IMG/VR virus record: IMGVR_UViG_3300038829_000258
Location: 1-39,665 of that record
DNA from: a virus
Taxonomy: Duplodnaviria; Caudoviricetes
Reading direction: 5' to 3' (one strand)
DNA length: 39,665 nt
Below the pieces are notes generated by a model. The model did not search any database and had not been told where the DNA came from. It saw only the letters and a list, made by a program, of their open reading frames with translations. Position numbers and translations under genes: made by a program. Shown here piece after piece: positions 1-38,716 of the stretch (within the stretch, counting starts at the first letter, position 1; the number at the start of each line of letters is the position of its first letter).

Positions 1-984
1 TTAGGCCGCTTTTTTGCGGCCGGCCCTGCCCCGCCCCTGCCCCGCCGCCGCCGACTTGGCCGCGATCCGACCCACGGCGCGCTGCAGGTCTGCCGTCCCA
101 AGGTGGGCATAGCGCCCGGTCGGCTGCAAGCTGGAGTGGCCGAGCAGGTCGCGCACGGCTGTGATCGGAGCGCCCGACTGGACCAGCCAGCTCGCGTAGG
201 TATGGCGCAGGTCGTGGAAGCGAATGTGCGGCATCCTGGCGCGCGCGCGGGCACGGTCGAAGCCCTTGCGCAGCTCGTCGACCGTGAGCTGGAGCGGCAG
301 GCGGATCTTCTGAGCCTCGGCCGGCAGTGGCACCAGGCGCGGCCGGCCGTTCTTGCTGTCTGGCAGGTGGAGCGCGCCGTCGCGCCGATCGCCGGCGGAC
401 AGGCGCAGCAGCTCGCCCTTGCGCAGGCCGGAGGTCGCGGCGAGCACGATGGTGTCGGCGACGCGCCGATCGCGCGCGGCGCCGGCGAGCTTCTTCACGT
501 CTTCCGGCGTGAGGTAAACGTGGCGCGACTTCTCGCCGGGTAGAAGGCGCACGCGGCGGCCGAGATCCTCTTCGAGCCACATCCATTGCGTGTAGGCGAG
601 ATTGGCGACGCGGCGCAGGATGGCCAGGCGCCGGTTGATGGTGGCGGGCGTGAGGCCATCATCGAGGCCTGCGCTCTTGACCGCTTCTGCGGCCTCGGCG
701 ACATCGACCAGCGCGCGGCCCTTGATGTGCGGCAGCAGCGTGCGGACCTTGTTCTTCAGGTTGGCGAGAGTGCGCAGCGCGCGCGCCTCGCCGGTCAGCC
801 AGCGTTCGAGCGCTTCCTCGATGCTGTAGCGCGGTGTGCGGCCAACTCGACGATCGGCGATCCGGTTGCGGTTGAGCCGTTCCCATTCGAGCGCTTCCGG
901 CCTGGTCCCAAAAGTGCGGCTAGACCGATCCCCAGCGTGCTGCACTCGCGCTTCCCAACCTTTACCGTGTCGTCGGACTGGCAT
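1..984 (-). CDS. int: Tyrosine recombinase / phage integrase
   Basis: Catalytic R (SGLRKGE), K (SKNG), HxLR (FHDLRH), LGH and Y (RYAH) motifs. Confidence 0.95.
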   Translation of the reverse strand: MPVRRHGKGWEARVQHAGDRSSRTFGTRPEALEWERLNRNRIADRRVGRTPRYSIEEALERWLTGEARALRTLANLKNKVRTLLPHIKGRALVDVAEAAEAVKSAGLDDGLTPATINRRLAILRRVANLAYTQWMWLEEDLGRRVRLLPGEKSRHVYLTPEDVKKLAGAARDRRVADTIVLAATSGLRKGELLRLSAGDRRDGALHLPDSKNGRPRLVPLPAEAQKIRLPLQLTVDELRKGFDRARARARMPHIRFHDLRHTYASWLVQSGAPITAVRDLLGHSSLQPTGRYAHLGTADLQRAVGRIAAKSAAAGQGRGRAGRKKAA

Positions 985-1163
985 GAAGTCGAAACCCTGT
1001 TGCGTTGGCGATAGTCGTCGAGGGCGGCGGCCGGGATGCGCACCAGCCGCCGGACTTTTACCGCGCCGAGGTTGCCGGCGTCAACTTCGCGCCGCACCGT
1101 GCGCGGCGAGACGTTGAGCTGCGCAGCGGCTTGCTCGATGGTGAGGTCGGGCTGGGCGCTCAT
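795..1163 (-). CDS. xis: Excisionase (HTH_17/MerR-like DNA-binding protein)
   Basis: LTIEQAAAQLNVSPRTVRR...GAVKVRRLVRIP motif; directly upstream of and overlapping int. Confidence 0.8.
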   Translation of the reverse strand: MSAQPDLTIEQAAAQLNVSPRTVRREVDAGNLGAVKVRRLVRIPAAALDDYRQRNRVSTSCQSDDTVKVGKRECSTLGIGLAALLGPGRKRSNGNGSTATGSPIVELAAHRATASRKRSNAG

Positions 1164-1780
1164 GCGCGTTTAAACTCCACAACCCACACCCACGGATTCG
1201 CTGCTGCATGTCCCCGTCCGTTGATGTGATCCCACAGCGCGATGTAGTTCAGCTCCGGCCAGTGCGATGGCGTGATCCACTTCGGCGGCGGCTGCTGCTC
1301 GGCCGCCCAGCAGACGCCTTCCGCAGCGGCGTCCTTGCGGCTGATTGAATGTAGGCGCTCCACGCGCACGTCGGTCACATCGAGGACCAGGCGGCAGAGC
1401 GCTCGCGGCATGTGAATCCCGGGTGTCCACCGGCACGCTGCTTCGCCATCGGCGCGGTAGAGCACGCGCGCCGCCGCAGCTTGGCGCGCATCGCAGAACG
1501 TCTCGCGCACCCAAAGTCTGTCGCCGAGCTCGCCGTAGGGGCACCACGACAGCCACGATCCCAGCGGGGCGTGCGCGCCGTCCTCGGCGAATGGCCAGCC
1601 CCACGACATCGGATCGTTGGCCGCGCCGGAGAACTGATCACTGTGCAGGCGCAGGTTCACGAGCGGCCACTTGCCGGACCTGCCGAGCGGCCCGACAACC
1701 CGCCGCGTTTGCGTCTTCCGCCCGGCGAGAATCGCCTGCACCATCGGGCCGCTGAACAGGATCGGGCGCTCTTTCATCAT
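1160..1780 (-). CDS. ASCH/PUA-like conserved phage protein
   Basis: MKERPILFSGPMVQAILAGRKTQTRR, CPYG..GDRLWVRET, PGIHMPR and NPWVWVVEF motifs; start reassigned to the ATG overlapping the upstream stop. Confidence 0.8.
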   Translation of the reverse strand: MMKERPILFSGPMVQAILAGRKTQTRRVVGPLGRSGKWPLVNLRLHSDQFSGAANDPMSWGWPFAEDGAHAPLGSWLSWCPYGELGDRLWVRETFCDARQAAAARVLYRADGEAACRWTPGIHMPRALCRLVLDVTDVRVERLHSISRKDAAAEGVCWAAEQQPPPKWITPSHWPELNYIALWDHINGRGHAAANPWVWVVEFKRA

Positions 1781-2349
1781 CGGACCGCCTCCACATGCCG
1801 CTCCGCCGCCTTGATCGTGCGCGCGGGCGCGTCGCGCAGCCGATCGCGCCAGGTGTCCGAAAACACTGGCTCGAAGACCTGGCGCAGCTCGCGGTGCGTG
1901 CGCGGCCGGACCTGCTGGAGCAGATCCGGGTTCGTAACGAACACGCGGAACATCTCGGCGAACCACTCCGCATCGTTCGGGCAGTAGGACGTGATCGGCT
2001 TCTCGCCGGCGACCTGCCTGAGCCTGATGCCGAAGTCGCCGTAGTAGTTGCCGCGCCGCGTGCTGCGCTCGACGTCGACGTGGTGGCCCAGCTCGTGCTG
2101 CACGACGCCGTAGGGCGTGCGGTCCACGGTGTAGCCCGGGTAGGACCAGGCGCGGCCGGCTACGCCGATCGCGGCGCACTTCGGTACGCAGATGTGGATC
2201 GTGGCGGGGCGGTAGTAGGCGCACACGCCGAACGACCATGAAGCTGGGCTCGCCTCGTTGACCTCCGGCTGCCGGAGGGAATTGAGGGTGCAGAAGTCCA
2301 CCATCAGCTTCACGCCTGCCACCAGCAGGTTGGGCTTTGAAATGTTCAC
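1777..2349 (-). CDS. Putative zincin-type metallopeptidase
   Basis: HELGH (HExxH) plus downstream EWFAE; GTG start overlaps the ThiF stop (GTGA). Confidence 0.6.
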   Translation of the reverse strand: MNISKPNLLVAGVKLMVDFCTLNSLRQPEVNEASPASWSFGVCAYYRPATIHICVPKCAAIGVAGRAWSYPGYTVDRTPYGVVQHELGHHVDVERSTRRGNYYGDFGIRLRQVAGEKPITSYCPNDAEWFAEMFRVFVTNPDLLQQVRPRTHRELRQVFEPVFSDTWRDRLRDAPARTIKAAERHVEAVR

Positions 2350-3224
2350 AGGCATCCTTCCTTGCTTCTCGCGGTCTTAGGGCGCGGCGTGTAGCCGAAT
2401 CGTTCCCACGCCGCGAGGTCGCACCGAAGCGGCGTGATCCGGCCGGAGGCGGCGTTCACGAACACGCCGTGGTAGTCGGTCTGCTTGTGGCGGAAGAGCT
2501 GCCAGAGGAGCTGCAGGGCCTGGCTGGCCACGAGCTGGTTGATGAAAAGCTCTTGGCGCCCGAGGGCCTCGGCGAGGGAGCAGCTCGGCGCGCGGTCCGC
2601 GCGATCCAGGCGGTTCGCGGCGCGGCCGGACGTTTCGCCCGCGAAGAGGTCGGTGAACATCGGCAGCCGGCCCCACATGCGGCGATGCTTGCGGTTCATC
2701 GGAGGCACGCCGAGGATCACCTGGCCGTCCGCAGCGCGGTTGCCGAGGTCCATCCAGTAGAAGGGCGTGCCGTGGCGGCCGGAGAACATGCTGCCGCCGG
2801 ACGGGTCGAGCACGTCCGCGATCATGCTGCGCGCCGCGCGGGTATCGACGCACGAGATCAGGATCCCGGTGTTGGCGTCGCGCTTCACGCGCCCCCAGTG
2901 TTCCGGCTCGGCGTACCAATCCAGCCCGAAGAAGCTGTTGAGGCGGTGGACCAGCACGGTGGCCTTGTTGCGGCCGACGTCGGCCGGGGAGAAGAGCTGG
3001 CGGCCGACGTTCGCGGGCGAGACGGCGTCGCCGTCGAACACCGCGACGAAGAGGCCCGGGTGGCCCAGCGCGCGCAGCGCCAGGTGCAGGCGGGCGAGGC
3101 CGGTGAGCATCTGGCTGCCGTTGCCGCCGCAGCCGACCAGGCTGACGTGGACTCGCTCGTCGAGAAGCCGTGGATGGATGCAGTGGAGGAACGGGCCTTC
3201 TGGCTTGCGCTCGTCGTATCTCAT
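2346..3224 (-). CDS. PRTRC-system ThiF/E1-like adenylating enzyme
   Basis: VGCGGNGS nucleotide-binding loop, DGDxVSxANVGRQLF, ISCVDT, WMDLGN, PSCSLAEAL (putative catalytic Cys). Confidence 0.88.
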   Translation of the reverse strand: MRYDERKPEGPFLHCIHPRLLDERVHVSLVGCGGNGSQMLTGLARLHLALRALGHPGLFVAVFDGDAVSPANVGRQLFSPADVGRNKATVLVHRLNSFFGLDWYAEPEHWGRVKRDANTGILISCVDTRAARSMIADVLDPSGGSMFSGRHGTPFYWMDLGNRAADGQVILGVPPMNRKHRRMWGRLPMFTDLFAGETSGRAANRLDRADRAPSCSLAEALGRQELFINQLVASQALQLLWQLFRHKQTDYHGVFVNAASGRITPLRCDLAAWERFGYTPRPKTARSKEGCL

Positions 3225-3817
3225 GCGCTTTCCTCGATGAACATGCCGAGCAGGCACAGCCGGCGGGCGTACGTGAGCTCCTGGTCGACGTTGCCGATCA
3301 CCACCGAATACTTGACCTCGCCGGCGTCGTCCTCGTCGTCGGTGCCGGAGAAGCAGGCGCCGATCGCGCCGTGCGAGTGGATGTCGATCGCAAGGTGCAG
3401 GTGATCCTGCAGGCGTGGGCGCTCCAGATCCACGCTTCCAGGCGTTGCCGCCGTGGCGATCAGGGGCCAGTAGTCGAGCTTGCCAGTTCTTTCGTCGTAC
3501 ACGCCCCACGCGGCGCACTCGTTGGGGAAGGCGCGCGCCGCGTCGTGGAGGAAGCGGTGCTCGATCTCCTCGAGATCGGGCTGCGCGAAGGCGTACGTGA
3601 TCCTCTGCTCCACAGGCCCGTACGGCAGCGGGATCTCCGCCGCGGCGACGGGTACCCGCGCGTGGAGCCACGGCCGCAGCACTTCGAGCCAGAGGCCGTC
3701 GCGCGCGGCGAGGTAGCGGTGCCCCGGCTTCTCGGGCAGGGCCAGCGCGCCGAAGCTCGGCACCATCACCACGGGCACGTGGGCCTGCAGCACCTGGTCG
3801 CGTCGATCGAGCGTCAT
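3221..3817 (-). CDS. PRTRC-system protein A (JAB/JAMM metallo-isopeptidase)
   Basis: NECAAW (Glu) and IHSHG...FSGTDDEDD JAMM motif; N-terminal GHRYLAARDGLWLEV typical of PRTRC-A. Confidence 0.85.
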   Translation of the reverse strand: MTLDRRDQVLQAHVPVVMVPSFGALALPEKPGHRYLAARDGLWLEVLRPWLHARVPVAAAEIPLPYGPVEQRITYAFAQPDLEEIEHRFLHDAARAFPNECAAWGVYDERTGKLDYWPLIATAATPGSVDLERPRLQDHLHLAIDIHSHGAIGACFSGTDDEDDAGEVKYSVVIGNVDQELTYARRLCLLGMFIEESA

Positions 3818-4575
3818 TTCCCTTCCCTCTCGAACGAGCGGAGCAGCGACTCCAGGGTGTGCCTGCCGTGGGGCCGGAGCGAGGCCTCGGGGAAGGTCTT
3901 GTGCTTGCCGTCGAGCAGGTCGCGCCACAGCGCATGCACGCCGCCGCGGTACAGGGTGAGCGCCTTGTCGCTGGCGTTGGGGTGCGTGAAACGGGAATGG
4001 AAGAACGCCCGCTCGAACTGCGCCAGCGTGTCGGGCGACACGCGCTCAGGCCTGCGGACGTTGCCTTCGCAGATCGCGCCGTCCTCGTGGACGTTGAAGT
4101 GCGGCGCGCGGAAGAGCTGCGTGTCGGGCCGCGGCCGCGCGGCGCCCTTGACCGCGTACACGTGCCAGCGGCCCTCCACGAGCATGTGGACCAGGCCGGG
4201 CTGGTGCAGGCGCCCGGTGCGGTTGCCGATGTGGCGCCTGGCGTTCTTCTCGTCGATCGTCTCGAAGAACATCGTCGCGACCGCCGGCGCGCGCCACCAG
4301 GCGACGGTGCGCGGCCCGACGAACAGGATCTCGGGCGCGATCCACCCGTTGAAGGCGGCGCGGTCTGTCATGGCGCGCGCGAAGATCTCGCAGGCCTTGG
4401 CGGTCGCCGGCCGGCCGGGGCAGAGGCGGGGGCCGCCCTTCCGGTTGCGCTCGATGTCGTGCACGGTCGCGTACACGTTCTTGTCGCCCATGCCGGTGCG
4501 CGACGTGTAGAGCAGGATCGCCGAGTCGAGTTCGTACCTGGAGGTTCCGCCCGAGCGGACGGTGACGTCAGACAT
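3814..4575 (-). CDS. PRTRC-system protein B (prokaryotic E2 family D)
   Basis: AILLY..ATVH, VAWWRAP, PGLV, LFRAPHFNV..DGAICEGN (putative active Cys), FFHSRFTHPN. Confidence 0.85.
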   Translation of the reverse strand: MSDVTVRSGGTSRYELDSAILLYTSRTGMGDKNVYATVHDIERNRKGGPRLCPGRPATAKACEIFARAMTDRAAFNGWIAPEILFVGPRTVAWWRAPAVATMFFETIDEKNARRHIGNRTGRLHQPGLVHMLVEGRWHVYAVKGAARPRPDTQLFRAPHFNVHEDGAICEGNVRRPERVSPDTLAQFERAFFHSRFTHPNASDKALTLYRGGVHALWRDLLDGKHKTFPEASLRPHGRHTLESLLRSFEREGK

Positions 4576-5503
4576 TTTTCTGCTCTCCTTCAAGGATCAG
4601 GACCAGGGCATCGACGGCGCGCAGGACGGGCGCAGTCTTCGCGATCGACGTGAGGAAGTACTCCAGCACGGGCCCGATCGAGGCCGCCGAGCGCGCCGCG
4701 TTGGTCATGTGAAAGAGCGAGCGCTGCTCCTCCTGGCGCTGGTTGCGGTAGGCGTCGAGGAGCTGCATGTGCCCGCTTTTGTAGTCGTACGACTTCTCGC
4801 AGTGGACGATCAGCGGGAAGGTGGTGAGTTGCCCCGAGGTCGTCGGCAGCTTCAGCTCGCGGATCTTCGCCACCGCGTCCTCCACGGCCAGGATGGCGCG
4901 CGCGAGCCTGGCGGGGAACTGCGCGCCCGAACGCTTGGTGATGCGCTGGAGCGATTCGCGCGGCAGCATGGCCGGGCTCAGCATCCATGCCGCGTACTTG
5001 CCCAGGTACTCGACCATGAACTTCCGGCCGGCCGCCATGCGCAGCATCGTTTCGGGGAGCAGGATGGGCACCGACGCGTCCGCGGCATGCGCCAGCGCGC
5101 TGAGCGCGGATTGACCGAGGCCGGTCACCTGTTCCGCGGCGCGCAACCCTTTGCCCAGCGCGCACTGCGTCGGGGCGCCGGATTTCGCATTCAGGTCGAT
5201 GCGAAAGGACCCGTCCTCGTCCTCCTTGTATTCCACCCTGAAGCGGTAGACGCTCCGGCCGCCGTGCATGCGCGCCGCGAGCGTGGTGGCCTGCGGATCG
5301 CCCGGCTTGTACTGGAGTTCCTTCAGCCAGCCGTCCAGCACGCGCGCGATCACGGGAGCGGCAATGGTTTCGCTGCCGGCGTGGTGCCCGTACGTGCCGT
5401 CCAGCATGGCAAGGGCAACCTTCGCGGACACCGGCGACGCGTGATAGACCGTGTACGCGCGCGGGGCCCGGCCAAGCTCCGGCAGTTCGAGGACGGCGTT
5501 CAC
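4568..5503 (-). CDS. Divergent PRTRC protein F-like protein
   Basis: Position between protein C and protein B, ~310 aa, N-terminal LELPEL..P motif; similarity weak by eye. Confidence 0.45.
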   Translation of the reverse strand: MNAVLELPELGRAPRAYTVYHASPVSAKVALAMLDGTYGHHAGSETIAAPVIARVLDGWLKELQYKPGDPQATTLAARMHGGRSVYRFRVEYKEDEDGSFRIDLNAKSGAPTQCALGKGLRAAEQVTGLGQSALSALAHAADASVPILLPETMLRMAAGRKFMVEYLGKYAAWMLSPAMLPRESLQRITKRSGAQFPARLARAILAVEDAVAKIRELKLPTTSGQLTTFPLIVHCEKSYDYKSGHMQLLDAYRNQRQEEQRSLFHMTNAARSAASIGPVLEYFLTSIAKTAPVLRAVDALVLILEGEQKNV

Positions 5504-5751
5504 GGCAGAGGCGGCAGCGCTTCGGGTGCGGCGAAGATCAGGCCTTCGCCCGGCACCGTGATCGGGGCGTCCTCGGCTTCGTTTTCGTCCACGCCGTAGT
5601 CCGTCTGCATCGACTCGCGCACCAGCTCCGCGCAGGCCTGCGCGAACGGCGCCGCGGCGGCATGCTCCTCCGGCAGCACGGCGTTGCCGCGCGGGCGCTT
5701 CGCCTGGCCGGTGGCGAGCGCCTGGAGCTTGGCGCGTGCTTCTGTGCTCAC
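5500..5751 (-). CDS. Small hypothetical protein inside the PRTRC cassette
   Basis: GTG start overlaps the Ubl stop; its stop overlaps the F-like start; acidic and Pro-rich C-terminus. Confidence 0.55.
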   Translation of the reverse strand: MSTEARAKLQALATGQAKRPRGNAVLPEEHAAAAPFAQACAELVRESMQTDYGVDENEAEDAPITVPGEGLIFAAPEALPPLP

Positions 5752-6140
5752 GCTGCTCTCCGCGCGCGCCAGGCCTTCTGGCATTCCCTGCAGTGACGGT
5801 GCAGCCCGGCGGGGCCGGTTCCCTTGCTGAAGGCCGGCAACGGCTTGTCCACCTTGCAGCCCGCGCAGCGCTTCACGTCAACGCCGTCCACCAACTTCGG
5901 GAAGGCCTTGCGCGCGGCCGGGCGCGGCACGAAGTTGTATCCCTTAGTCCCGACAGCGCGCCGGAACGTGTACACGCGCTTGCCGTCCTTCAGCTCGGGG
6001 CCCTCGATCGCGGCGCTGACGATCTCGGGGTAGGTTGCCGAGTAGAGGTTGCGGACGTCGACGGCGTCGTGCTCGGGGCCCGGGTCTTCGAGCTCGATGT
6101 TGTTGTAGCGGAAAACGCGGGGCAGCTTGTCGTGGCTCAT
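5748..6140 (-). CDS. PRTRC protein C (ubiquitin-like) fused to a C-terminal CxxC...CxxC zinc finger
   Basis: RVFRYNNIELEDP...YSATYPEI..A.IEGP...YTFRRAVGTKG (Gly67) followed by KRCAGC..KPLPAF...HCRECQK. Confidence 0.82.
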   Translation of the reverse strand: MSHDKLPRVFRYNNIELEDPGPEHDAVDVRNLYSATYPEIVSAAIEGPELKDGKRVYTFRRAVGTKGYNFVPRPAARKAFPKLVDGVDVKRCAGCKVDKPLPAFSKGTGPAGLHRHCRECQKAWRARRAA

Positions 6141-7075
6141 GTGGACTCCGAGGTCTTCGGTGCGTCAAGGGTCGCGGAGTCCGGCTTGGCTTCCTCTGCG
6201 GCTCTGGCTGCCGCCTCGGCCTTCGTCTCCACCTGGATCTCGCGCTTCTCGGCGTCGATCGACACGACGGTGAAGAAGCCGGCGCTGCAGTTGAACGGAT
6301 CGCCCGGTTTCTTCTCGAAGATGGTGGCGCCGAGCGTCTTGCCCTTGGCCTTCACGGTCCACGGGCCCGGCGGCGCTGGCTTCGTGGGCTTGGGCTTGGA
6401 CTTGGGCGCTGCCGCTGCCGGTACCTTCGGGGCCTTCGCCGGCTTCGCAGCGCTGGTCTTCGCTGCCGCGGGCGCCTTCTCGCCCAGGCACGCGGCGCGC
6501 AGCTTGGCGAAGTTGGTGATCCGTTCGTAGCGCCGGCCGATCTTCTTGATCAGGCCCTCGCGGTCGAGGCTCGGGTTCGCCTTGAAGAGCGGCTTGGCCT
6601 GGTTGATCAGGTCCTCCAGCGCGGAGTTCTGGCCTGGCCTTGCGCGGGGAGCGGAGCGCTTGGGTGCGGCGCGCTTGGGTGTGGAGCGTTTAAACGATGC
6701 CGGCTTCTTAGCGGCCGGTTTCTTCTTCGCCGTCTTCCGCACGGCTTTTGCCTTGGCTACCGGGGCCGTAACACCCGGGCGGCCGTAGATCTCGCTCCGC
6801 ACGTGGAGCATGGCGGCGAGGTTGATCACGTCGACCATGTCGCCCTTGTCCACATGCTCGCGAAGCGAGGCGCGCAGGTCGGCGTCGATCTCGGGCTTGG
6901 GCTGGTGCCACCCGCCGCGGCCGTCCAGGCGTTTCTTCGCCAGCTTCTCGGTCATGGCCTTGCCGGCCAGGTCCACCAGCATGGCGTCGGCCTTCTCGTC
7001 GGCGAGCGCGCTGATGAAGGTGGAGAGTGACGCGGACGGTTGCGGCAGGGCGGCGTCGCTCGGTTTCTTTTTCAT
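6137..7075 (-). CDS. Lys/Ala/Pro-rich (histone H1-like) protein with N-terminal helical phage domain
   Basis: SD AGAAAGGA; N-terminal AMTEKLAKKR..GRGGW...EHVDKGDMVDVINLAAML; AKKKPAAKK/AKPAKAPK repeats. Confidence 0.65.
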   Translation of the reverse strand: MKKKPSDAALPQPSASLSTFISALADEKADAMLVDLAGKAMTEKLAKKRLDGRGGWHQPKPEIDADLRASLREHVDKGDMVDVINLAAMLHVRSEIYGRPGVTAPVAKAKAVRKTAKKKPAAKKPASFKRSTPKRAAPKRSAPRARPGQNSALEDLINQAKPLFKANPSLDREGLIKKIGRRYERITNFAKLRAACLGEKAPAAAKTSAAKPAKAPKVPAAAAPKSKPKPTKPAPPGPWTVKAKGKTLGATIFEKKPGDPFNCSAGFFTVVSIDAEKREIQVETKAEAAARAAEEAKPDSATLDAPKTSEST

Positions 7076-7347
7076 GGCGTTCCTTTCTGTGGAGCGGGTT
7101 TGCGGGTGAACCATCGGGCATGCACGTAGATGCTCGATGTGATGCCGGTGACGCCGCCGAGGAGGTAGGCGGCGCACTGGGTGACGCTGGCCTCGGGCAG
7201 GATCTTGTAGAGGACGAGGCTCGCGCCGCCGATGAACAGGCTGGTGATCGCGGCCATGACGTACTGGCCCTGATTCACGTTGCGGCTCTGGAAGCCGAGC
7301 GCGAAGACGGTGATGAAGGTGGAGGCGAAGAGCATCAGCTCGGTCAT
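7072..7347 (-). CDS. Small membrane protein (about 3 TM)
   Basis: Three hydrophobic segments; ATGA overlaps at both ends. Confidence 0.7.
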   Translation of the reverse strand: MTELMLFASTFITVFALGFQSRNVNQGQYVMAAITSLFIGGASLVLYKILPEASVTQCAAYLLGGVTGITSSIYVHARWFTRKPAPQKGTP

Positions 7348-7619
7348 GGCGTGCCCGGCACCCACCGCTGCACCAGCTTGAGCAGGCCTGCCGGCGAGCG
7401 GCTCTTGCCGAGCTTCGTGGTGGGCTGTTGGAACATCGCCTGCCGGTAGAGCAGGTACACGGGCACCTGGTGGCCCTTCACGGTGTCTTGCTTCTCCACG
7501 ACGAACATGTGGTGCTGGCCGGCGAGCTGCCGCGCCTCCCACAGGATCTGATGCGGCAGCGGCTTGGCCTTCTTCTCCCGCTTCGCGCGCGCCGGGGCGG
7601 GATGGTCAGCCAGTTCCAC
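7344..7619 (-). CDS. Hypothetical protein
   Basis: Fits the chain of overlapping leftward ORFs; SD GGAGG-like context not clear. Confidence 0.55.
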   Translation of the reverse strand: MELADHPAPARAKREKKAKPLPHQILWEARQLAGQHHMFVVEKQDTVKGHQVPVYLLYRQAMFQQPTTKLGKSRSPAGLLKLVQRWVPGTP

Positions 7620-7794
7620 CGACGGCCTTCTTGTACGAGCGCTCCGCGTGCGCCGCGAACACGCGGCGGGAATCCTGCAGATACTGCTCGGTGGCGGCGA
7701 TGATCACGGCCTCGGGGCTGAGGTCGCGCAGCTCGGCGTAGCGCCGCAACGTCTCGTCCAGCTGCGCCGGGAGCCTGACGTTGCGGCCTCTCAT
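7606..7794 (-). CDS. Ribbon-helix-helix (CopG/Arc-like) protein
   Basis: RNVRLPAQLDETLRRYAELRDLSPEAVIIAATEQYL strand-helix-helix pattern. Confidence 0.65.
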   Translation of the reverse strand: MRGRNVRLPAQLDETLRRYAELRDLSPEAVIIAATEQYLQDSRRVFAAHAERSYKKAVGGTG

Positions 7795-8063
7795 GCGCCG
7801 CCCGGCACTTTCAGCACGCGCCGCTCCACGCAGTGGAGCTTCCAGTCGCCGGCGTCGGCGCGCTTGGCCAGCGTGTCCATGCCGCGGCGCTCGCAGCGCG
7901 CGGACCAGATCACCGTCTCGGTGGTCTTCTGCCGGCGCGCGACGCGGGCGAGCTTCTCCTCGGTCCACGTTTCGATGGCGTCGGCGGCGTCGTGCGTGTT
8001 GGCGTGCATGCTGGCGAGGACCAGCACCAGCGCGCCGAGGATGGTGTTCACGAGTCGCCTCAC
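7791..8063 (-). CDS. Hypothetical membrane-anchored/secreted protein
   Basis: N-terminal hydrophobic stretch; GTGA overlap with the upstream gene. Confidence 0.55.
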   Translation of the reverse strand: MRRLVNTILGALVLVLASMHANTHDAADAIETWTEEKLARVARRQKTTETVIWSARCERRGMDTLAKRADAGDWKLHCVERRVLKVPGGA

Positions 8064-8251
8064 CGGCCGATGCTCCAGGTGGAGGCCCACGCGGCGAGGT
8101 CGGGCAGCGCCCACAGGAACAGGCCGAACACTCCGAACGCCAGCGCGGTCGCGAGCAGCACGACGCGGACGCTGGCCGGTTCGCGTGGCACGCGATCGGC
8201 GGGGAGGGTGAAGTCGTAGGGCGTACCGTGCGGGGTGCGGTCGCGGGTCAT
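8060..8251 (-). CDS. Small single-TM protein
   Basis: SD CAGGAG before ATG; hydrophobic VVLLATALAFGVFGLFLWAL. Confidence 0.6.
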   Translation of the reverse strand: MTRDRTPHGTPYDFTLPADRVPREPASVRVVLLATALAFGVFGLFLWALPDLAAWASTWSIGR

Positions 8252-8293
8252 GGCTGGCTCCTGTCGTAGACTTGGGGGACGGAGGGAACCGCC

Positions 8294-8632
8294 ATGGAGA
8301 AAGTCGAACGCTCGGAAGTCACGCTGCACCCCGAATCGCAACAACTGTCCATCGCGTTCCACGGAGGCGGAAAACACTCAACGATCCGCCTTGGCTACGA
8401 CGATGCCTGGCCGCTGTGCCTCGCGGTGATGCAGCAGCTTGTCCGCGCGACCTATGCGCAGGTCCAGAAGCAGCCGTCGCTACACGCCGATGAAGTGGCG
8501 AAACTGCCGCGCCTGGCGCCGGCCGAAGTGTCGATGAGCCGGGTCGGCGACCGATTCCTTTTCGTGTCGATGCTGTCGCCGACGTCGCCGTTCCAGTTGA
8601 GATGGACCGGAACACTGCAGAAGGACTGCTGA
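8294..8632 (+). CDS. Counter-oriented hypothetical protein (possibly frameshifted near 8597)
   Basis: SD GGAGGG upstream; globular-looking sequence; opposite strand to flanking genes. Confidence 0.55.
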   Translation: MEKVERSEVTLHPESQQLSIAFHGGGKHSTIRLGYDDAWPLCLAVMQQLVRATYAQVQKQPSLHADEVAKLPRLAPAEVSMSRVGDRFLFVSMLSPTSPFQLRWTGTLQKDC

Positions 8633-8712
8633 CGGCGCTGAGCACACTCCTGCAGCGCGGATCGAATAGCAAACCGAGTTAGCGGTCTTCGACAGCACGA
8701 CGGCCGGGCGCT

Positions 8713-8904
8713 TCACGCGCGGTCCACCCGCACGAGGTCAACGCACTGGCCGGCGCCCGCGATCAGCGCGGCGCTGGCGGTGGGGAAGGTGTCGGCGTCC
8801 TTCGGTTCAACCGACCGGAAGCCGGCGGTGGTGAGCGCTACACCGAGGCCGGTGGCGGTCTGTTCGAGGCGGTAGTGCGGGTATTTCTTCTTCGTGCTGG
8901 CCAT
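8713..8904 (-). CDS. Hypothetical protein, first gene of the leftward early operon
   Basis: SD GGAGGG; immediately downstream of the pL-like promoter. Confidence 0.65.
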   Translation of the reverse strand: MASTKKKYPHYRLEQTATGLGVALTTAGFRSVEPKDADTFPTASAALIAGAGQCVDLVRVDRA

Positions 8905-8930
8905 GTGCCCTCCGTCGTTTGACGGAAGGC

Positions 8931-8970
8931 ATTAAACACCTTGTTTAGTCTAGTGTCAACACGGTGTTTA
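8931..8970 (-). promoter_or_regulatory. pL-like sigma70 promoter with two 15-bp operators
   Basis: Minus strand TTGACA (8959-8954), 17 bp, TTTAAT (8936-8931); operators TAAACACCTTGTTTA (8933-8947) and TCAACACGGTGTTTA (8956-8970). Confidence 0.8.
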
Positions 8971-9408
8971 GTCTTGCCATGCCACGAGGCGGTCGTCCTC
9001 GAGATACACGTAGCGCTTCGGCGACTCATACACCAGCTGGTGGCGCTCGCCGCGACCACTCACGGTCCTGTTGCCGTGGCTGGGTTCGCCGATCGCGGCG
9101 TACACCGCGCACCAGGGCATGCCGACGCGGAGCCGGCGTTCCCGGATGTAGCCGGTATCGTTCGGCAGTATCTGGTAGTCGCGCGCGCGATCGAGCATTG
9201 CCTTCTCCCACCGCTGTCCGCGCTCGCTGACGTCTGGCTTGCGGAGCAGGCGGCCGAGCTGCAGGCAGAACGCGTTGGGCTTGATCATTGATGCCTTGAT
9301 GCGGAGATCCTGATCGGTCTCGGGCGCCTTCTTGGACTGAGCATTCGCTCCACACGCGAGCGCCAGGCTCGCGGAAGCTATTGCCAATCGCATCGACGAG
9401 GCGGTCAC
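8968..9408 (-). CDS. Exported protein co-transcribed with the repressor (SmpA/BamE-like C-terminal fold; superinfection-exclusion candidate)
   Basis: Signal peptide (RLAIASASLALACGANA-Q); LRVGM...AAIGEP...QLVY..YVYLEDDRLVAWQ; GTGA overlap with the repressor stop. Confidence 0.6.
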   Translation of the reverse strand: MTASSMRLAIASASLALACGANAQSKKAPETDQDLRIKASMIKPNAFCLQLGRLLRKPDVSERGQRWEKAMLDRARDYQILPNDTGYIRERRLRVGMPWCAVYAAIGEPSHGNRTVSGRGERHQLVYESPKRYVYLEDDRLVAWQD

Positions 9409-9890
9409 TTTTTCTTCGCCGGCGCTCGGCCTGGCGGGAGGCCGTAGGCTGCTTCGACCTTGCGGTCGTCGACGGGTGTGGCGGCGATTTTCGCCAGCAG
9501 GATCGTCATGCTCTCCGCAGCTTCATCCTGGACGTCGTCGCCGCGCAATTTAGCCATGTGCTTGATCGCGATCTTCCATCGACCGGTTGCAGCACGGTAC
9601 AGATCGAGTAGCTCTCGCTCGTCGTCGGTGAGATAGCTGCCGGTGACCTGACGCGCGACGTGGGATGTGGCCTGGCCAGTCTCCTTGAGGTATTGCTCGA
9701 CGGAAATGCCGAGCGCGGCGGCGACGGCAGGTAGTTCCGCTGCGGGAATGCCCCGACGTTTCCAGTTGGTCAGTCGCTGGTGGCTGATACCGCTCCCGAG
9801 CGCGAACTTGGCGGCCGCGCCGAACGAATCGCCGATGCGCGTGAACAGCGGCTCGGACGAGATTTTCCTAGTGTTGTCGCCCCTCGGCAT
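9405..9890 (-). CDS. cI: CI-like HTH repressor (no S24 peptidase domain seen)
   Basis: HTH GISHQRLTNWKRRGIP..LPAVAAALGISVEQYL; LTDDERELLDLYR C-domain; divergent from cro. Confidence 0.75.
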   Translation of the reverse strand: MPRGDNTRKISSEPLFTRIGDSFGAAAKFALGSGISHQRLTNWKRRGIPAAELPAVAAALGISVEQYLKETGQATSHVARQVTGSYLTDDERELLDLYRAATGRWKIAIKHMAKLRGDDVQDEAAESMTILLAKIAATPVDDRKVEAAYGLPPGRAPAKKK

Positions 9891-9925
9891 GAGGAAAAGC
9901 GTATTCCCGATTGCGCCCAATGGGT

Positions 9926-9966
9926 TACACAATACGTTGACAAAGATTAAACACGGTGTTTACACT
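9926..9966 (+). promoter_or_regulatory. pR-like sigma70 promoter with operator(s)
   Basis: TTGACA (9937-9942), 18 bp, TACACT (9961-9966); perfect palindrome TAAACAC-G-GTGTTTA at 9948-9962; degenerate copy at 9926-9940. Confidence 0.8.
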
Positions 9967-9973
9967 CTCGGCC

Positions 9974-10261
9974 GTGAACTCGACTCAATCCGAACCGCAG
10001 AACCCCGGCCTTGAGGCCGCAATTCTCGTCGCTGGTAGCCCCGGCGCGCTGGCGCTCCTGCTGAGCGTTGAGCCGCAGGTCGTCACCAACTGGCGCAGGC
10101 GTGGTGTGCCGCCTCACCGAGTGCTTGCCGTCGAGCAGGCGGTGTGTGGCGCGGTGACGCGCTACGAGCTGCGGCCCGAGATCTACGGCGAGAAGCCTGC
10201 CGACTGGGTGTCGCCGTTCGTGCGCAACGAGCCGGCGGCAATGTCCGCGGGTGCGGGGTAA
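9974..10261 (+). CDS. cro: Cro/YdaS-like repressor
   Basis: AGSPGALALLLSVEPQVVTNWRRRGVPPHRVLAVEQA...VTRYELRPEIYG; divergent from cI. Confidence 0.85.
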   Translation: MNSTQSEPQNPGLEAAILVAGSPGALALLLSVEPQVVTNWRRRGVPPHRVLAVEQAVCGAVTRYELRPEIYGEKPADWVSPFVRNEPAAMSAGAG

Positions 10262-10274
10262 GCGTGGCTTACGC

Positions 10275-10299
10275 ATGGACGAGATCGTCCATTTTTTTT
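10275..10299 (+). terminator. tR1-like intrinsic terminator
   Basis: ATGGACG-AGAT-CGTCCAT hairpin followed by a T run, between cro and the CII-like gene. Confidence 0.65.
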
Positions 10300-10318
10300 G
10301 CGTTGGGAGGATAGACAA

Positions 10319-10750
10319 GTGACGACAAAACTTTTGACGACGGTTGAAGGTGCGCAGCAGCCGCTGCCATTGCACCGAGCCGTGACGCCCGAGGACGTGT
10401 CGCTGGAGACGATCGTCAAGCGCCGCTCGATGCTCGGCGCGATCAATCTGATGATCGACGTGTCCGGCCTCGAGGACAAGGAACTGTACTCACCGCTGGA
10501 TATCGACGCCGGGCACTGGTCGAAGATGCGCAAGGGGCAGGCGCAGTTCCCCGTCGATGAACGCCTCGGCCGCGCCATGGACATGTGCGCCAGCGAAGTG
10601 CCGCTCATCTGGCTGGCCAATTCTCGCGGCTACGGAATCCACCTTCTCGAATCTGAGGCCGCGCGCCAGTTGCGTGCCGAGCGCGAGCTGCGCATTGAAG
10701 CCGAGAAGAAGGTCGATCTGCTCACCGGAATTCTGAAACGGCAGGCATAG
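10319..10750 (+). CDS. CII-like HTH regulator
   Basis: SD GGGAGG; position after cro; LDIDAGHWSKMRKG helix-turn-helix-like segment and coiled C-terminus. Confidence 0.6.
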   Translation: MTTKLLTTVEGAQQPLPLHRAVTPEDVSLETIVKRRSMLGAINLMIDVSGLEDKELYSPLDIDAGHWSKMRKGQAQFPVDERLGRAMDMCASEVPLIWLANSRGYGIHLLESEAARQLRAERELRIEAEKKVDLLTGILKRQA

Positions 10751-13251: not shown

Positions 13252-15852
13252 GTGATCGCACCCGAGGAACTCCGCCACCGGCAACAGTGGCTGCTCTGGC
13301 GCTTTGAGCCCAATCCGAAGAAGCCGGACGGCAAGAAGCTCAAGGTGCCGTACTACATCTCCGGCAAGCGGCGCATGGGCACGCAGGGCAGCGACGACGA
13401 CCGCTCCTGGCTGTCGCTCTACCACTCGGTGATCGACGAACTGTCGCGCAGCCGCGGCTCCAGGTTGCCGTATGACGGCATCGGGTTCGCGTTCCTGCCT
13501 GGCGACGGCCTGATCGGGATCGACCTGGACCACATGCTGGACAAGGACACCGGCGAGCTGTCGCAGCGGGCGCTCTCGATCGTGCAGGCCTGCGCGAGCT
13601 ACACGGAGTGGTCGCCATCGAAGGCCGGGCTCCACATCATCGTCAAGGGCGAGACGGTCACCAACAAGTCCGACAAGATCGGCGTGGAGATCTTCTGCGG
13701 AGCGCAGTACTTCACCTTCACGGGTGAGCTGTACTCCGGCGCGCCGTCCGAAGTGGCGGAGATCTCGGCCAAGGCGCTGGCGCGGCTGCATGCAACCGTG
13801 AACGAGGCGAAGGGCAAGAGCAGGCCCGCTCCCGCTGCGCCTGGCGCAGCCGCAAAGCCTGCCGCCGGCGTCCGTTCACTCGACAACGATTTCAAGAAGG
13901 TGAACGACGCCGCGCTCGCGAATCTCGACGCGTGGGTGCCGGCGCTGTTCCCGGACGCGAAGCGATCGAGCAAGGGCTACCGCGTGACCTCGCACAGCCT
14001 CGGGCGGGATCTCGAGGAGGATCTCTCGATCACGCAGGATGGCATCAAGGACTGGGGCGTGGCCGACATCGGCGATCCGCGCGAAGGCGGACGCACGCCG
14101 ATCGACCTGGTGCTGGAGTGGGGGCCGGCGAAGAAGCCCAAGGACGCGCTGCATTGGCTTGCCGCGCAGCTCGGCATCACGCTCTCCAGTCGCGCCCCCG
14201 CACCCCGAGGAACGGGGAGTGGTGGTAACACGCCTCCTCCGGGTGGATGGGGGCGCGGGCCCAATGAAGACGGGGATTCCGGCGAGCCGCCGCCCGAAGG
14301 TGTGCCGGTGATCAAGGTGAAGGCCGGCCTGCTGCCGCAGGCGGTGGACCTTGCGGAGCAGGCGCTGCTCGATTTCCCCGAGCGGATCTATCAGCGCTCG
14401 GGGTTCATCACGCGGGTGGTGAAGCGCGACCGGCCGAGCGTGCGCAACTACACGCGCGACGCGGGCTCGCTCGGCGTCCACACCGTGGACCAAAACTATC
14501 TGCTCGAACTCTTCAACCGCGCCGCGGTGTGGGAGAAGTGGAACGTGAAGTCCGAGGCCTGGGTGCGCTGCCACTGCCCGGACCAGGTGGCGTCGTTCTA
14601 CCTCGCGCGCGTCGGCCGATGGAAGCTGCCGAAGCTGTGGTCAGTGGTGAGCGCGCCCACGTTGCGGCCTGATGGCACGCTGCTGCAGAAGCCGGGCTAC
14701 GACGAAGCGACGAACACGTACTACGACCCGTGCGGAGTGAAGTTCCCCGCGATCCCGGACAAGCCGTCGCGCGAGGATGCCGAGGCGGCTTTGAAGCTGC
14801 TGCTGGATCTCTTCAAGTCCTTCCCCTTCGAGCAGGAGCTGGACCGCGCGGTGGCGCTCAGCCTGGCGCTCACGGCGCTGGTGCGGCGTGCGCTGCCGTC
14901 CGCCCCGCTCGGGGCCTTCACCGCGCCGATCATGGGCTCGGGCAAGACGCTCATGGCCGATTGCATCTCGATCCTCGCGGCCGGGGTGTCTGTGCCAGCG
15001 ATGACGTACCCCGAAAGGGAGGAGGAAGCCGAGAAGACCGCGCTCTCGGTGCTGATGGAAGGCGACCCGGTGGTGCTGATCGACAACGTGGAGCGCCCGC
15101 TGCAGGGCGCCTGGCTGTGCTCGATACTCACGCAGGAGGTCTACCAGCAGCGCGTGCTCGGCCGCTCGGAGATGATGCGCGTGCCCACGACCACGCTGTG
15201 GCTCGCCACCGGCAACCAGCTCGTCGTCGCCGGCGACCTTCGCACCCGCACCCTGTTGTGTCGGATCGACCCCAAGTCCGAGCATCCCGAGCAGAGGTCG
15301 TTCGCCGGTGATCTGCGCGAATGGACCACCAGCAACCGGCCGGCACTCGTGGCGGCGGGCTTGACGCTGATCCGCGCCTTCATGGCCACAGGGACGCCGG
15401 TGTCCGAGATCTGCAAGCCGTGGGGCCGCTTCGAGCGCTGGAGCGAGATGGTGCGCGCGCCGCTGATCTGGCTCGGCTGCGACGATCCTTGCCGCAGCCT
15501 GGCCGCGCTCGAAGGCGACGACCCCGAGCGCAACGAACTGGCGCGCATGCTCGCCTCGTGGCGGGCTTGCTTCGGTATCGAGCCGACCAGCGCAAGGGAA
15601 GCGGTGGAGCGAACCATGCCGACGATGGCGGGGCTCGACGGGGATGCCAAGGCGCTCGGCGACGTGCTGAAGGAGATCGCGGCGGAGCGCGGAGGGGGGC
15701 TGAGCGTTCGCCGCCTCGGCAAGTGGCTCCAGAAGCACAGCGGCCGGCGGATCGACGGCAACTTCTTCACGAAGGCTAGCGAGCGTGACCACGTTGCGCT
15801 TTGGAAGGTCATGTCCAGCGACAAGGGAGGCACCGCACCAGCTACGGGCTAA
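13252..15852 (+). CDS. Primase-polymerase (AEP) fused to a P-loop helicase
   Basis: QWLLWR..KVPY, GIGF...GIDLD, EWSPSKAGLHII (AEP motifs); Walker A GSGKT and Walker B VLIDNV; GTG start inferred. Confidence 0.85.
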   Translation: MIAPEELRHRQQWLLWRFEPNPKKPDGKKLKVPYYISGKRRMGTQGSDDDRSWLSLYHSVIDELSRSRGSRLPYDGIGFAFLPGDGLIGIDLDHMLDKDTGELSQRALSIVQACASYTEWSPSKAGLHIIVKGETVTNKSDKIGVEIFCGAQYFTFTGELYSGAPSEVAEISAKALARLHATVNEAKGKSRPAPAAPGAAAKPAAGVRSLDNDFKKVNDAALANLDAWVPALFPDAKRSSKGYRVTSHSLGRDLEEDLSITQDGIKDWGVADIGDPREGGRTPIDLVLEWGPAKKPKDALHWLAAQLGITLSSRAPAPRGTGSGGNTPPPGGWGRGPNEDGDSGEPPPEGVPVIKVKAGLLPQAVDLAEQALLDFPERIYQRSGFITRVVKRDRPSVRNYTRDAGSLGVHTVDQNYLLELFNRAAVWEKWNVKSEAWVRCHCPDQVASFYLARVGRWKLPKLWSVVSAPTLRPDGTLLQKPGYDEATNTYYDPCGVKFPAIPDKPSREDAEAALKLLLDLFKSFPFEQELDRAVALSLALTALVRRALPSAPLGAFTAPIMGSGKTLMADCISILAAGVSVPAMTYPEREEEAEKTALSVLMEGDPVVLIDNVERPLQGAWLCSILTQEVYQQRVLGRSEMMRVPTTTLWLATGNQLVVAGDLRTRTLLCRIDPKSEHPEQRSFAGDLREWTTSNRPALVAAGLTLIRAFMATGTPVSEICKPWGRFERWSEMVRAPLIWLGCDDPCRSLAALEGDDPERNELARMLASWRACFGIEPTSAREAVERTMPTMAGLDGDAKALGDVLKEIAAERGGGLSVRRLGKWLQKHSGRRIDGNFFTKASERDHVALWKVMSSDKGGTAPATG

Positions 15853-23801: not shown

Positions 23802-25172
23802 ATGGCAATGAACGATGGCGAAAGGCAAGTGGCGCCCACGGTGGACGGCATCAGGTGCGATCACGTTGCACGGTACGAATGGGCCGCAAAGCTGGTCAAG
23901 GGGCGGGTGATCGACCTCGCCTGTGGAGTCGGCTACGGCACCGCGATCCTCGCGGCTGCAGGTTGCAAGGCGATCGGCTTCGACCGCGCGTCGGAGGCGA
24001 TCGGATATGCCCGCAAGCACTACGCGGGCACGGGCGCGGAGTTCACGTGCGCCGAGGCGATCCAGATCGACAAGGGCAAGGCCGACGCCGTCGTGTGCTT
24101 CGAGACCGTCGAGCACCTCGAGGAGCCGGCGCCGGTGCTGATGAACCTGCGCGCGATCGCGCCGCTGCTGCTTGTGAGCGTGCCGAACGAAGACGTGGTG
24201 CCGCACGACGGGAGGGCCAAGTTCCACTTCCGGCACTACACGAAGGGCCAGTTCCACGCGCTGCTGAGCACCACGGGCTGGGCCGTGAAGGAATGGTGGG
24301 GGCAGGCGGGCATCGAGTCAGACGTCGAGCTGGACGTCGCGGGGCGCACGCTGATCGCGGTGTGCGAGCGCATGGAGATTCCGCAGAAGTTGGCGCCGTC
24401 GCCGATCAACGTCGCGCCGCCGCAGCCGGATCGTCCCGTGCCGGAGCACGTCGCCATCCTGGCGCTGGGCCCGAGCCTCGAGAAGTATGTCGACGTGGTG
24501 AAGCGCGTGGGCGGCAAGCACGCCTACTGCGACGAAACGTGGGGCATCAACGCGGTGGGCGGCGTGGTCCTGTGCGACCGCATCTTCCACATGGACGACG
24601 TGCGGATCCAGGAGATCCGGGCGAAAGCCAGGCCTGACACCAACATCGCGCGCATGCTGGAGTGGATCAAGGTCCATCCGGGCCCGATCATCACCAGCCG
24701 CGCGCACCCGGACTATCCGGGGCTGGTGGAGTACCCGCTGCGGGACGTGATCCACACGTTCCAGCACGCGTACTTCAACTCCACGGTCGCGTATGCGGTC
24801 GCGTACGCGATCTGGCTGGGCGTGAAGAAGATCAGCCTGTACGGCCTGGACTTCACTTACGCGAACTCGCACGACGCGGAGAAGGGCCGCGCGTGCGTCG
24901 AGTTCTGGCTCGGCATTGCAGCGGAGCGGGGCATCAACTTCATGATCCCCAAGGATTCGACCCTGCTGGACGCGATGAACACGCAGGCCGAGCGGCTCTA
25001 CGGCTACGACACCGTCGATGTGCGGATCAGCGCTGTGAAAGGCGACACGGTGGTGGAGTTCACCGAGCGGGCGCAGCTGCCCACCGCCGACGAGATCGAG
25101 GACCGCTACGACCACGGCCGGCACACCAACGCGCTCGTGGAGCAAAGCCTGGCTGCGGCCGGCGAAGGATAG
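23802..25172 (+). CDS. Class I SAM methyltransferase fused to a DUF115/MptE/Maf-like transferase domain
   Basis: HVARYEWA, VIDLACGVGYG, CFETVEHL; then VAILALGPS, WGIN, YFNSTVAYAVAYAI.LG.K.I.LYGLDF. Confidence 0.7.
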   Translation: MAMNDGERQVAPTVDGIRCDHVARYEWAAKLVKGRVIDLACGVGYGTAILAAAGCKAIGFDRASEAIGYARKHYAGTGAEFTCAEAIQIDKGKADAVVCFETVEHLEEPAPVLMNLRAIAPLLLVSVPNEDVVPHDGRAKFHFRHYTKGQFHALLSTTGWAVKEWWGQAGIESDVELDVAGRTLIAVCERMEIPQKLAPSPINVAPPQPDRPVPEHVAILALGPSLEKYVDVVKRVGGKHAYCDETWGINAVGGVVLCDRIFHMDDVRIQEIRAKARPDTNIARMLEWIKVHPGPIITSRAHPDYPGLVEYPLRDVIHTFQHAYFNSTVAYAVAYAIWLGVKKISLYGLDFTYANSHDAEKGRACVEFWLGIAAERGINFMIPKDSTLLDAMNTQAERLYGYDTVDVRISAVKGDTVVEFTERAQLPTADEIEDRYDHGRHTNALVEQSLAAAGEG

Positions 25173-37968: not shown

Positions 37969-38408
37969 CGGTAGACCAGCGCACCGACCACGACTGCGTA
38001 TTCGTATGCCTTGCGATGGTGCTGGGGTTGACGTACGAGCAGGCGGCTGCGCGCGCCGGCGCGGCGTTCATGGAGATCCTGCAGGTGCAAGGGTGCACGG
38101 GCGTGATGGAGGACGCACTGTACGCCGCATTCGGGCTCAAGAAGGACGTGGACTACGTGGAGCGCGTCTACTCACCGCACTGGGGCACGGTTGGCGGAAT
38201 CAAGAACATGCTGTGGGGCCGTCGCGCGATGGTGACCGTCCGCAGCAAGAACATCCCGGACGGGTGGTACATGCTCTACTGGGACGGCGAGAAGGTCTAC
38301 GACCCGAGCCGGAAGAAGCGCTACGAAAGTTGGGATGAGGTCGAGCCGGTGGAGATGGTCCTCTTCCACCACCACCAGCGCCCGATCGGAGCACCGCCGT
38401 GCCAATGA
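37965..38408 (+). CDS. Peptidase C39-like protein
   Basis: QRTDHDC...CLAMVLG..YE and YWDG.KVYDP; the expected His appears to be Tyr. Confidence 0.55.
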   Translation: MTVDQRTDHDCVFVCLAMVLGLTYEQAAARAGAAFMEILQVQGCTGVMEDALYAAFGLKKDVDYVERVYSPHWGTVGGIKNMLWGRRAMVTVRSKNIPDGWYMLYWDGEKVYDPSRKKRYESWDEVEPVEMVLFHHHQRPIGAPPCQ

Positions 38409-38716
38409 CTCGGCTCAGCGCGATCCTCGCCGAGGCCTCGCCCGGGTACATGGCGCTGAAGGGCAAGACGCTGGCGCATTGGTGCCCTGGCTGTGACTCG
38501 CTCCACGTCATCAACGTGGAGAAGCCGAACCACTGCAATGCACTGTGGACGTGGGACGGCAATGTGGAGCAACCGACCTTCAGCCCGTCGATCAACATCG
38601 TCGGCGTGTGCCACTACTTCATCAAGGCGGGGCAGATCGAATTCTGCTCCGACAGCCGCCACGCGCTGGCCGGGCAGACCGTGCCGCTGCCGGAGCTCAC
38701 CGAGGACATGCTATGA
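38405..38716 (+). CDS. DUF6527-like metal-binding protein
   Basis: HWCPGC..H, WTWDGN...PTFSPSI, CHYFI..G.IEFC.D..H.LAGQTV.LP. Confidence 0.65.
   Translation: MTRLSAILAEASPGYMALKGKTLAHWCPGCDSLHVINVEKPNHCNALWTWDGNVEQPTFSPSINIVGVCHYFIKAGQIEFCSDSRHALAGQTVPLPELTEDML

Follow-up and report, generated by a model that had tools for sequence, protein, structure and literature searches.

Here we describe a predicted ubiquitin-like conjugation cassette of the PRTRC type near the left end of a phage record from IMG/VR (IMGVR_UViG_3300038829_000258), the whole 39,665 bases of which are called the window. The record is of the provirus class, with a CheckV completeness of 86%. We conclude with moderate confidence that the window is a temperate phage with a PRTRC cassette of operon type 6d (Iyer, Burroughs and Aravind 2006; PMC1779556), which would carry out ubiquitin-like conjugation with a tag precursor fused to an exchangeable passenger protein. 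The gene set, the intact predicted active sites, the in-frame fusion of the ubiquitin-like protein (Ubl) to its cargo, the exchange of that cargo among relatives and the operator-like sites were all seen directly.

The PRTRC gene set of the window

An earlier note on this DNA described six consecutive overlapping genes on the minus strand, and these were found where it had placed them (Table 1). All five junctions from open reading frame (ORF) 5748-6140 to ORF 2346-3224 overlap (GTGA, GTGA, 8 nucleotides, ATGA and ATGA, in that order). When the profile search proposed in the note was run, four of the products passed the NCBIfam cut-offs by about two-fold: protein C (TIGR03738, 91.7 bits with a cut-off of 45.95, residues 4-67), protein B (TIGR03737, 217 and 131.45), protein A (TIGR03735, 205.1 and 101.8) and the ThiF-family E1-like protein (TIGR03736, 289.6 and 144.75). 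The Pfam models Prok_Ub (C), Prok-E2_D (B), DUF2016 and Prok-JAB (A), and ThiF (E1) were also above cut-off.

Residue conservation was measured against 137-141 non-identical homologs from the fetched loci. The E1 motif G31-x-G33-G34-x-G36 is present, its nucleotide-binding residues are conserved among homologs, and C215 is kept in 137/137 of them. C169 of the E2-like protein B is kept in 141/141 homologs and H198 in 94%. The JAB residues E100, H147, H149, S157 and D160 are conserved (99%) and all present in the protein A of the window, as are the conserved R34 and W50 of its JAB-N domain. This comparison upholds the claim that the putative catalytic residues of E1, E2 and JAB are intact. Gly67 of the Ubl is found in 99% of 141 homologs; in the window it is internal, with a tail after it. 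The G+C content of third codon positions (GC3) is 0.88-0.96 across the cassette, and all frames are open and overlapping. The predicted model of protein B had a mean predicted local distance difference test score (pLDDT) of 88.7, and most of its top 37 structural matches were E2/UBC-fold chains. A PDB sequence search at E 1 gave no match for B or for the Ubl profile, and E1 showed a weak sequence match to the adenylation domain of yeast Uba1.

The small ORF that follows the Ubl gene was present as described, but it had not been recognised as a conserved component, which we call X. The X of the window is 73% identical over 77 amino acids to the fused tail of P0005, the nearest relative, and it reaches the wider X family only by profile comparison (hhalign 81-86% to two clusters and 6% to the largest X cluster). 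An ORF occupies the X slot in 100 loci, and 81 of these ORFs match the profile of fused tails. An X-like ORF follows just 1 (plus 1 marginal) of the 15 plasmid Ubls examined. The idea that X is an "ancestral tail" was dropped because plasmid cassettes mostly have a free Ubl.

The F-like gene was confirmed as a diverged protein F. It scored E 2.3e-12, over most of its length, on a profile of 139 F proteins that was seeded from the RefSeq-annotated F of Ralstonia phage Dina and its counterpart in Burkholderia phage BgVeeders33 and that excluded the window and its four nearest loci; reversed controls gave no score. It falls below the TIGR03742 cut-off and is part of a diverged subfamily (8 clusters), in which full-length relatives are 42-88% identical. 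A single-template hhalign comparison of the window F with Dina F was weak (probability 9.6%). The F model (pLDDT 68.9, built from 8 sequences) had no Foldseek match at E 0.001, its best VIA matches (Z 5.0) were scattered over secretion-chaperone-like folds and within noise, and its Atlas matches were unnamed and of low recognition. F has been suggested to be an enzyme (PMC1779556).

The earlier note had found neither ParB nor protein E recognisable. It was right that no model matches either protein: TIGR03741 does not match the E-slot protein, no PRTRC E model matched in the record, and a search for PRTRC ParB at E 10 drew a blank throughout the 39.7-kb record (86% complete). However, a chimeric remnant of E occupies the E slot directly upstream of the Ubl gene. 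Its N-terminus is phrog_8298, a phage accessory domain (E 1.2e-15, residues 25-95), its Lys/Ala/Pro-rich linker is retained (44 Lys in the protein), and its C-terminal module is 65% identical over 48 amino acids to the E-slot protein of locus L006. That protein keeps a diverged E-like N-terminus, the three nearest relatives of the window all have a diverged E domain, and the E domain lies directly before C in 80/84 phage loci. By these comparisons, protein E of the window is not deleted but is a chimera with phrog_8298 in place of the E domain. The last residues of many E proteins (loci L003-L164) form an acidic-hydrophobic peptide, for example DLF, DLL, DIF or DMY, which the chimera of the window lacks. 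The variable part of one E protein (L159:116-1081) looks by eye like a SWIB/MDM2 domain, which fits a modular E. None of 80 related phage records had a PRTRC ParB over cut-off, and 5 of them have a short ParB-like gene. Therefore, the loss of ParB appears to be normal in phage cassettes, and the survey for such cassettes that the note had called for makes its lack the rule.

Table 1. Cassette genes and regulatory features in the window.
Feature	Position	Strand	Models and remarks
Ubl domain of PRTRC protein C, residues 1-67, predicted mature tag	5940..6140	-	TIGR03738, PF14454; ends AVGTKG
Zinc-finger cargo, 63 aa, residues 68-130	5748..5939	-	in frame; Tyr first; CxxC...CxxC
Small ORF X, 83 aa, conserved unnamed PRTRC component	5500..5751	-	precedes F
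Diverged PRTRC protein F, 311 aa	4568..5503	-	independent F profile
PRTRC protein B, E2-like	3814..4575	-	TIGR03737; Prok-E2_D; C169 and H198
PRTRC protein A, JAB-N and JAB/JAMM metallopeptidase	3221..3817	-	TIGR03735, PF09436, PF14464
PRTRC ThiF-family E1-like adenylyltransferase	2346..3224	-	TIGR03736, PF00899; C215
Protein-E chimera, 312 aa	6137..7075	-	phrog_8298, linker and C-terminal module
pL-like promoter	8931..8970	-	TTGACA-17-TTTAAT at 8959-8931; two operator-like palindromes
pR-like promoter, between repressor-like and cro-like genes	9937..9966	+	same operator-like palindrome
Repressor-like gene	9405-9932	-	
cro-like gene	9956-10261	+	

A probable tag precursor with exchangeable cargo

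The identity of protein C as a Ubl was supported by TIGR03738 and PF14454, but its ORF encodes 130 amino acids, half of which form a zinc-finger tail that the note had omitted. The Ubl models stop at residue 67 (AVGTKG) and the ORF continues for 63 residues into the CxxC...CxxC zinc finger. This junction, with a tail behind it, recurs in each of the 120 homologs listed by a search that admitted only proteins of 71-228 amino acids; the locus sets used below are DNA-based and free of this length filter. The hexapeptide AVGTKG stands at the junction in 323/332 homologous sequences, a set that includes duplicates between proteins and loci. An assembly chimera at the junction is unsupported, since contigs from two sequencing runs of the same sample cross it without differences. 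The possibility that the Lys-Gly codons serve as a ribosome site for separate translation of the tail was rejected as an explanation for tails in general: just 31/154 junctions offer a start codon in frame between codons +2 and +5, and ATG is about equally common at +11 to +20. At the junction of the window, AAGGGA stands 9 nucleotides ahead of an in-frame GTG.

The zinc finger itself weakly matches those found in the endonuclease VII/HNH families of phages, and a comparison with annotated phages gave only two matches, both weak. It also occurs as a stand-alone gene of 65-70 amino acids (P0129, P0133, P0137 and P0144), in fusions with other domains, and after five further Ubls that are only about 68% identical to that of the window.

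Cargo was compared across 84 phage loci, consisting of the best 80 of 96 IMG/VR stretches by similarity to the window Ubl, three named phages and the window, and across 16 of the 92 plasmid cassettes found. Locus L165, with an identical Ubl and tail, was excluded from the tree and later counts as not independent. The Ubl is followed by a cargo and then a separate X ORF in 50 of the phage loci and is fused to X in 24; in 9 the Ubl has no tail or almost none, with X or another ORF next to it, and 1 is truncated. Tails of at least 25 residues occur in 75/84 phage loci (63/72 without identical Ubls) compared to 2/16 plasmid cassettes, a contrast that is confounded with lineage by the choice of sets. 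The tails in the 332 sequences form 46 clusters, 38 of which are not X-like, and several cargos are ordinary phage accessory domains that occur elsewhere in other genes.

Exchange was also seen among close relatives. Ubls at least 78% identical to that of the window (n = 27) carry X in 13 cases and 11 other tail families in the remaining 14. P0005, whose Ubl is 97% identical, has X fused directly to the Ubl; the zinc finger therefore appears to sit between Ubl and X in the lineage of the window. Two sets of identical Ubls bear different cargos, and cargo families are scattered over the Ubl tree. On this 78-row tree, which has only 62 columns, unsettled bootstraps and rough support, the 5 rows with the zinc-finger cargo require 5 changes, of which supported branches force at least 3. 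These patterns indicate that the cargo tail is a mobile, exchangeable module that does not follow the Ubl tree. Tails also track the presence of JAB: among 153 loci with E1, JAB is present in 146/146 tailed loci, and the 2 loci without JAB are both tail-free. In the plasmid cassettes L247 and L250, as annotated, there is no protein A and the Ubl ends exactly at Gly.

Proposed mechanism and alternative explanations

The cassette was said to lie downstream of a repressor-controlled pL promoter. A pL-like site was indeed read from the sequence (a consensus scan missed it), and its operator-like palindrome is shared with the cI/cro promoter, with 6 matches at 3 sites compared to 0.05 by chance. 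Such an operator-covered site is as expected for repressor control of the left operon. No minus-strand terminator was found in positions 1-10400, that is, down to the integrase, and no promoter of the cassette's own was found. The repressor-like gene has only a weak match to a YdaS-type helix-turn-helix and none to an S24 peptidase; induction may therefore be independent of RecA. On the plus strand, the ORF at 8294-8632 encodes 112 amino acids with a strong ribosome site and no family match.

We propose that the JAB domain of protein A very probably cuts after Gly67 and so releases the zinc finger from the mature Ubl. Related peptidases provide a precedent (BilC and BubC, below), the junction is nearly constant while the tails vary, and the tail is found only with JAB. 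Since any tail would be cut off, the position after AVGTKG could tolerate and trap neighbouring phage genes. It is likely that E1 would then adenylate Gly67 and form a thioester at Cys215, from which the Ubl would pass to Cys169 of E2 and to a target lysine. No E3 is encoded, and F and X are therefore probable adaptors. Expression from pL after induction or on infection is fairly likely. As for purpose, we offer the tentative guess that the tag may be put on a host protein of DNA surveillance, defence or replication and so help the phage to establish itself once it has entered a cell. This role is favoured because the cassette is shared by conjugative plasmids, for which it would do the same, and the early operons of phages. 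The reading in the note, that the phage expresses a protein-tagging system of its own on induction or infection, is supported in part; of the targets that it proposed, host defence proteins, a competing phage and the phage's own repressor are all candidates on the present evidence.

A stronger version of this proposal, which we find unlikely, is that temperate phages of Betaproteobacteria aim the pathway at the host and have dozens of unrelated accessory proteins placed behind AVGTKG, to be made 1:1 with the tag and released by JAB with a non-methionine N-terminus. One cut would then arm the tag and also switch on a swappable effector or set its half-life. Tolerance alone, in which the cut site makes a stop codon dispensable, explains most of the tail data, as opposed to selected fusion.

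Several points weigh against conjugation by a working phage cassette. The best structural match of the B model is low (Z 5.2, root-mean-square deviation 4.1, 118 residues aligned), and Foldseek gave no match for it at E 0.001. This copy of the cassette may be impaired, since the conserved domain of E is gone and the window F lacks several residues, Trp and Asp among them, that are kept in 87-100% of F proteins. The plus-strand ORF at 8294-8632 lies opposite, between pL and the cassette. The class of loci without JAB has just 2 members, the contrast in tails between phages and plasmids is confounded as stated, and tail labels on the rough Ubl tree take 45 changes compared to 57.6 when shuffled, so they are clustered beyond chance. 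Finally, no study of PRTRC activity or function was found in the literature searched, which did not cover subscription papers and supplements; cleavage, thioesters and conjugates are thus all proposed by analogy.

The missing residues and domain could also mean that the cassette is decaying, with a nonfunctional copy in which the cargo fusion and the E chimera are harmless rearrangements. B and E1 do depart from near-invariant positions at a few sites. However, the open and overlapping frames, the GC3 values and the intact catalytic residues make decay quite improbable, and relatives of F with 42-88% identity point to a long-lived subfamily. Another possible explanation is self-modification, in which proteins encoded by the element itself receive the tag, the lysine-rich E being the likeliest of them (or ParB in plasmids), as a control on replication, segregation or the lysis-lysogeny decision. 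This would share all steps before the target with the conjugation that we propose. The position of E directly before C in most phage loci, its Lys-rich linkers and the acidic-hydrophobic ends of many E proteins would suit such a target, but the window has intact enzymes with an E that lacks both the E domain and the end motif, and phage cassettes manage without PRTRC ParB. We regard self-modification as unlikely, though it is a serious rival, as is competition with other phages.

Anti-phage defence is the known or proposed function of the E1-E2-JAB-Ubl systems that have been characterised in bacteria, and a prophage-borne cassette could similarly tag the proteins of superinfecting phages, as in Bil. 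Yet these overlapping genes stand under an operator-covered promoter and would be off in a lysogen, with no promoter of their own found. Defence could still operate against co-infecting phages during lytic growth, but as the role of the cassette it is rather improbable. Most ThiF-family E1s serve sulfur-carrier or acyl-carrier types of modification. The Ubl could accordingly be a ThiS/MoaD-like carrier for modification of small molecules or nucleic acids, for which the enzyme role suggested for F would be fitting. The presence of an E2-like protein with an invariant Cys argues against a carrier, as does the absence of a sulfur-transfer gene among the 22 left-arm proteins scanned, and we consider it very unlikely.

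Relation to known systems and to the rest of the phage

A phage location for the cassette was implied to be rare, and this did not hold up, as the location is published, is annotated in RefSeq and recurs in the 96 IMG/VR stretches that encode a related Ubl. A near full-length E1 homolog was found in 4/50,697 annotated phage records (three phages); a first viral scan using protein B alone gave no match. RefSeq labels genes of Dina as PRTRC E, C, F, B, A and ThiF, with no ParB among its 55 genes. The cassette of Burkholderia phage AB2 was presented as a putative partitioning unit whose function had yet to be studied (PMC13366799, 2026), and a preprint describes a mutation hotspot in protein B of a Phocaeicola prophage (10.64898/2026.10.01.756045). 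The cassette lies upstream of an integrase in 34/70 viral loci with at least 5 kb downstream, and an N-6 DNA methylase gene is near it in 3/6 plasmid regions read widely.

Operon type 6d was described with a standalone small Ubl with a terminal Gly (PMC1779556). The window shares with type 6d/PRTRC (TIGR03734-03742) the Ubl, the JAB with JAB-N, the E1-like protein, the E2-like protein with a downstream His and the alpha-helical F. Its gene order, C-F-B-A-ThiF, is that of pMOL28, pPNAP01 and others. In plasmid cassettes, protein C has a tail of 0-9 amino acids in 14/16, and an annotated ParB lies next to E in 13/16, whereas the window has a 63-amino-acid cargo, no ParB, a replaced E domain and an F below the family cut-off. 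Judged by these sequence features, it has everything that defines type 6d, but it is not a full plasmid-type PRTRC because ParB and the E domain are lacking. Dina, BgVeeders33 and AB2 are temperate and have the same gene order in the left arm near a repressor-like gene and an integrase, with a protein C of about 129 amino acids, like the 130 of the window. Unlike the window, they retain a typical E. The Dina Ubl is fused to X, BgVeeders33 has another cargo plus a separate X, and AB2 was reported with ParB. The word "ubiquitin" is absent from the text of PMC13366799, and its section on the AB2 cassette omits the tail.

Bil (6c), Bub (6e) and CBASS Cap2/Cap3 share E1-E2-JAB-Ubl chemistry and JAB processing of a precursor with the window, where cleavage is a prediction. 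BilC trims BilA, with up to nine extra residues, after a conserved Gly (10.1101/2023.09.26.559546), and BubC cuts the BubAB Ubl-E2 fusion after a conserved Gly (PMC11601596). These systems belong to other families, marked by the multidomain BilD, the BubCD fusion and the CD-NTase of CBASS, are host-side defence loci and have fixed tails, and Bub forms oxyesters. PRTRC, in contrast, includes F, X and E, retains Cys in both E1 and E2, and shows exchangeable tails. The cap2_3 model scored 30 bits compared to a cut-off of 320, and the best models for the window were the PRTRC ones. By E1, E2 and Ubl family, then, the window is assigned to none of Bil, Bub or CBASS. No description of exchangeable PRTRC tails was found within the same limits of the literature search. 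In eukaryotes, UBA52 and RPS27A carry ubiquitin N-terminal to a small zinc-binding ribosomal protein that is released by deubiquitinases. This is an analogy only; that passenger has been fixed for more than 1 billion years, whereas the cargo here is swapped among close relatives.

The rest of the window is that of a temperate phage. The left end holds a tyrosine integrase and an excisionase; a repressor/cro/cII-like switch lies at 9.4-10.8 kb, and terminase, portal, protease, capsid and tail tube genes are in the right part. The sequencing runs that contain the record are labelled groundwater metagenome. Related Ubls in named genomes come chiefly from Burkholderiales and Rhodocyclales, and the host of the phage is likely a betaproteobacterium. 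At 1777-2355 (-), overlapping the E1 stop codon, a 192-amino-acid HExxH protein with a weak Peptidase_M90 match is encoded; no homolog of it was found in 163 related loci. An 864-amino-acid protein at 13258-15852 (+) was judged by eye to be a primase-helicase-like replication protein, with no Pfam match at E 0.001. Within the head gene block, 23802-25172 (+) encodes a 456-amino-acid methyltransferase fused to an MptE-like domain. A stand-alone DUF6527 gene (E 4.5e-14) is found in the lysis region at 38399-38716 (+); BubE, the deconjugating protease of Bub systems, belongs to this family. The product of the window gene could possibly counter a host Ubl defence. Membership of this gene in the PRTRC system was rejected, as it is present in 0/50 related PRTRC phage records.

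Type 6d is a bacterial ubiquitin-like system that was predicted in 2006 (PMC1779556). The window is one of many phages with such a cassette and is marked by its zinc-finger cargo, E chimera and diverged F. Function should be testable in the phage form, as it is compact, does without ParB and comes with a natural on-switch. The exchangeable tail leads to a sharp prediction, cleavage after Gly67, and might also be a means for phages to acquire accessory genes. The characterised relatives of the system all serve the host; a version in the early operons of numerous temperate phages would place ubiquitin-like tagging on the side of the virus.

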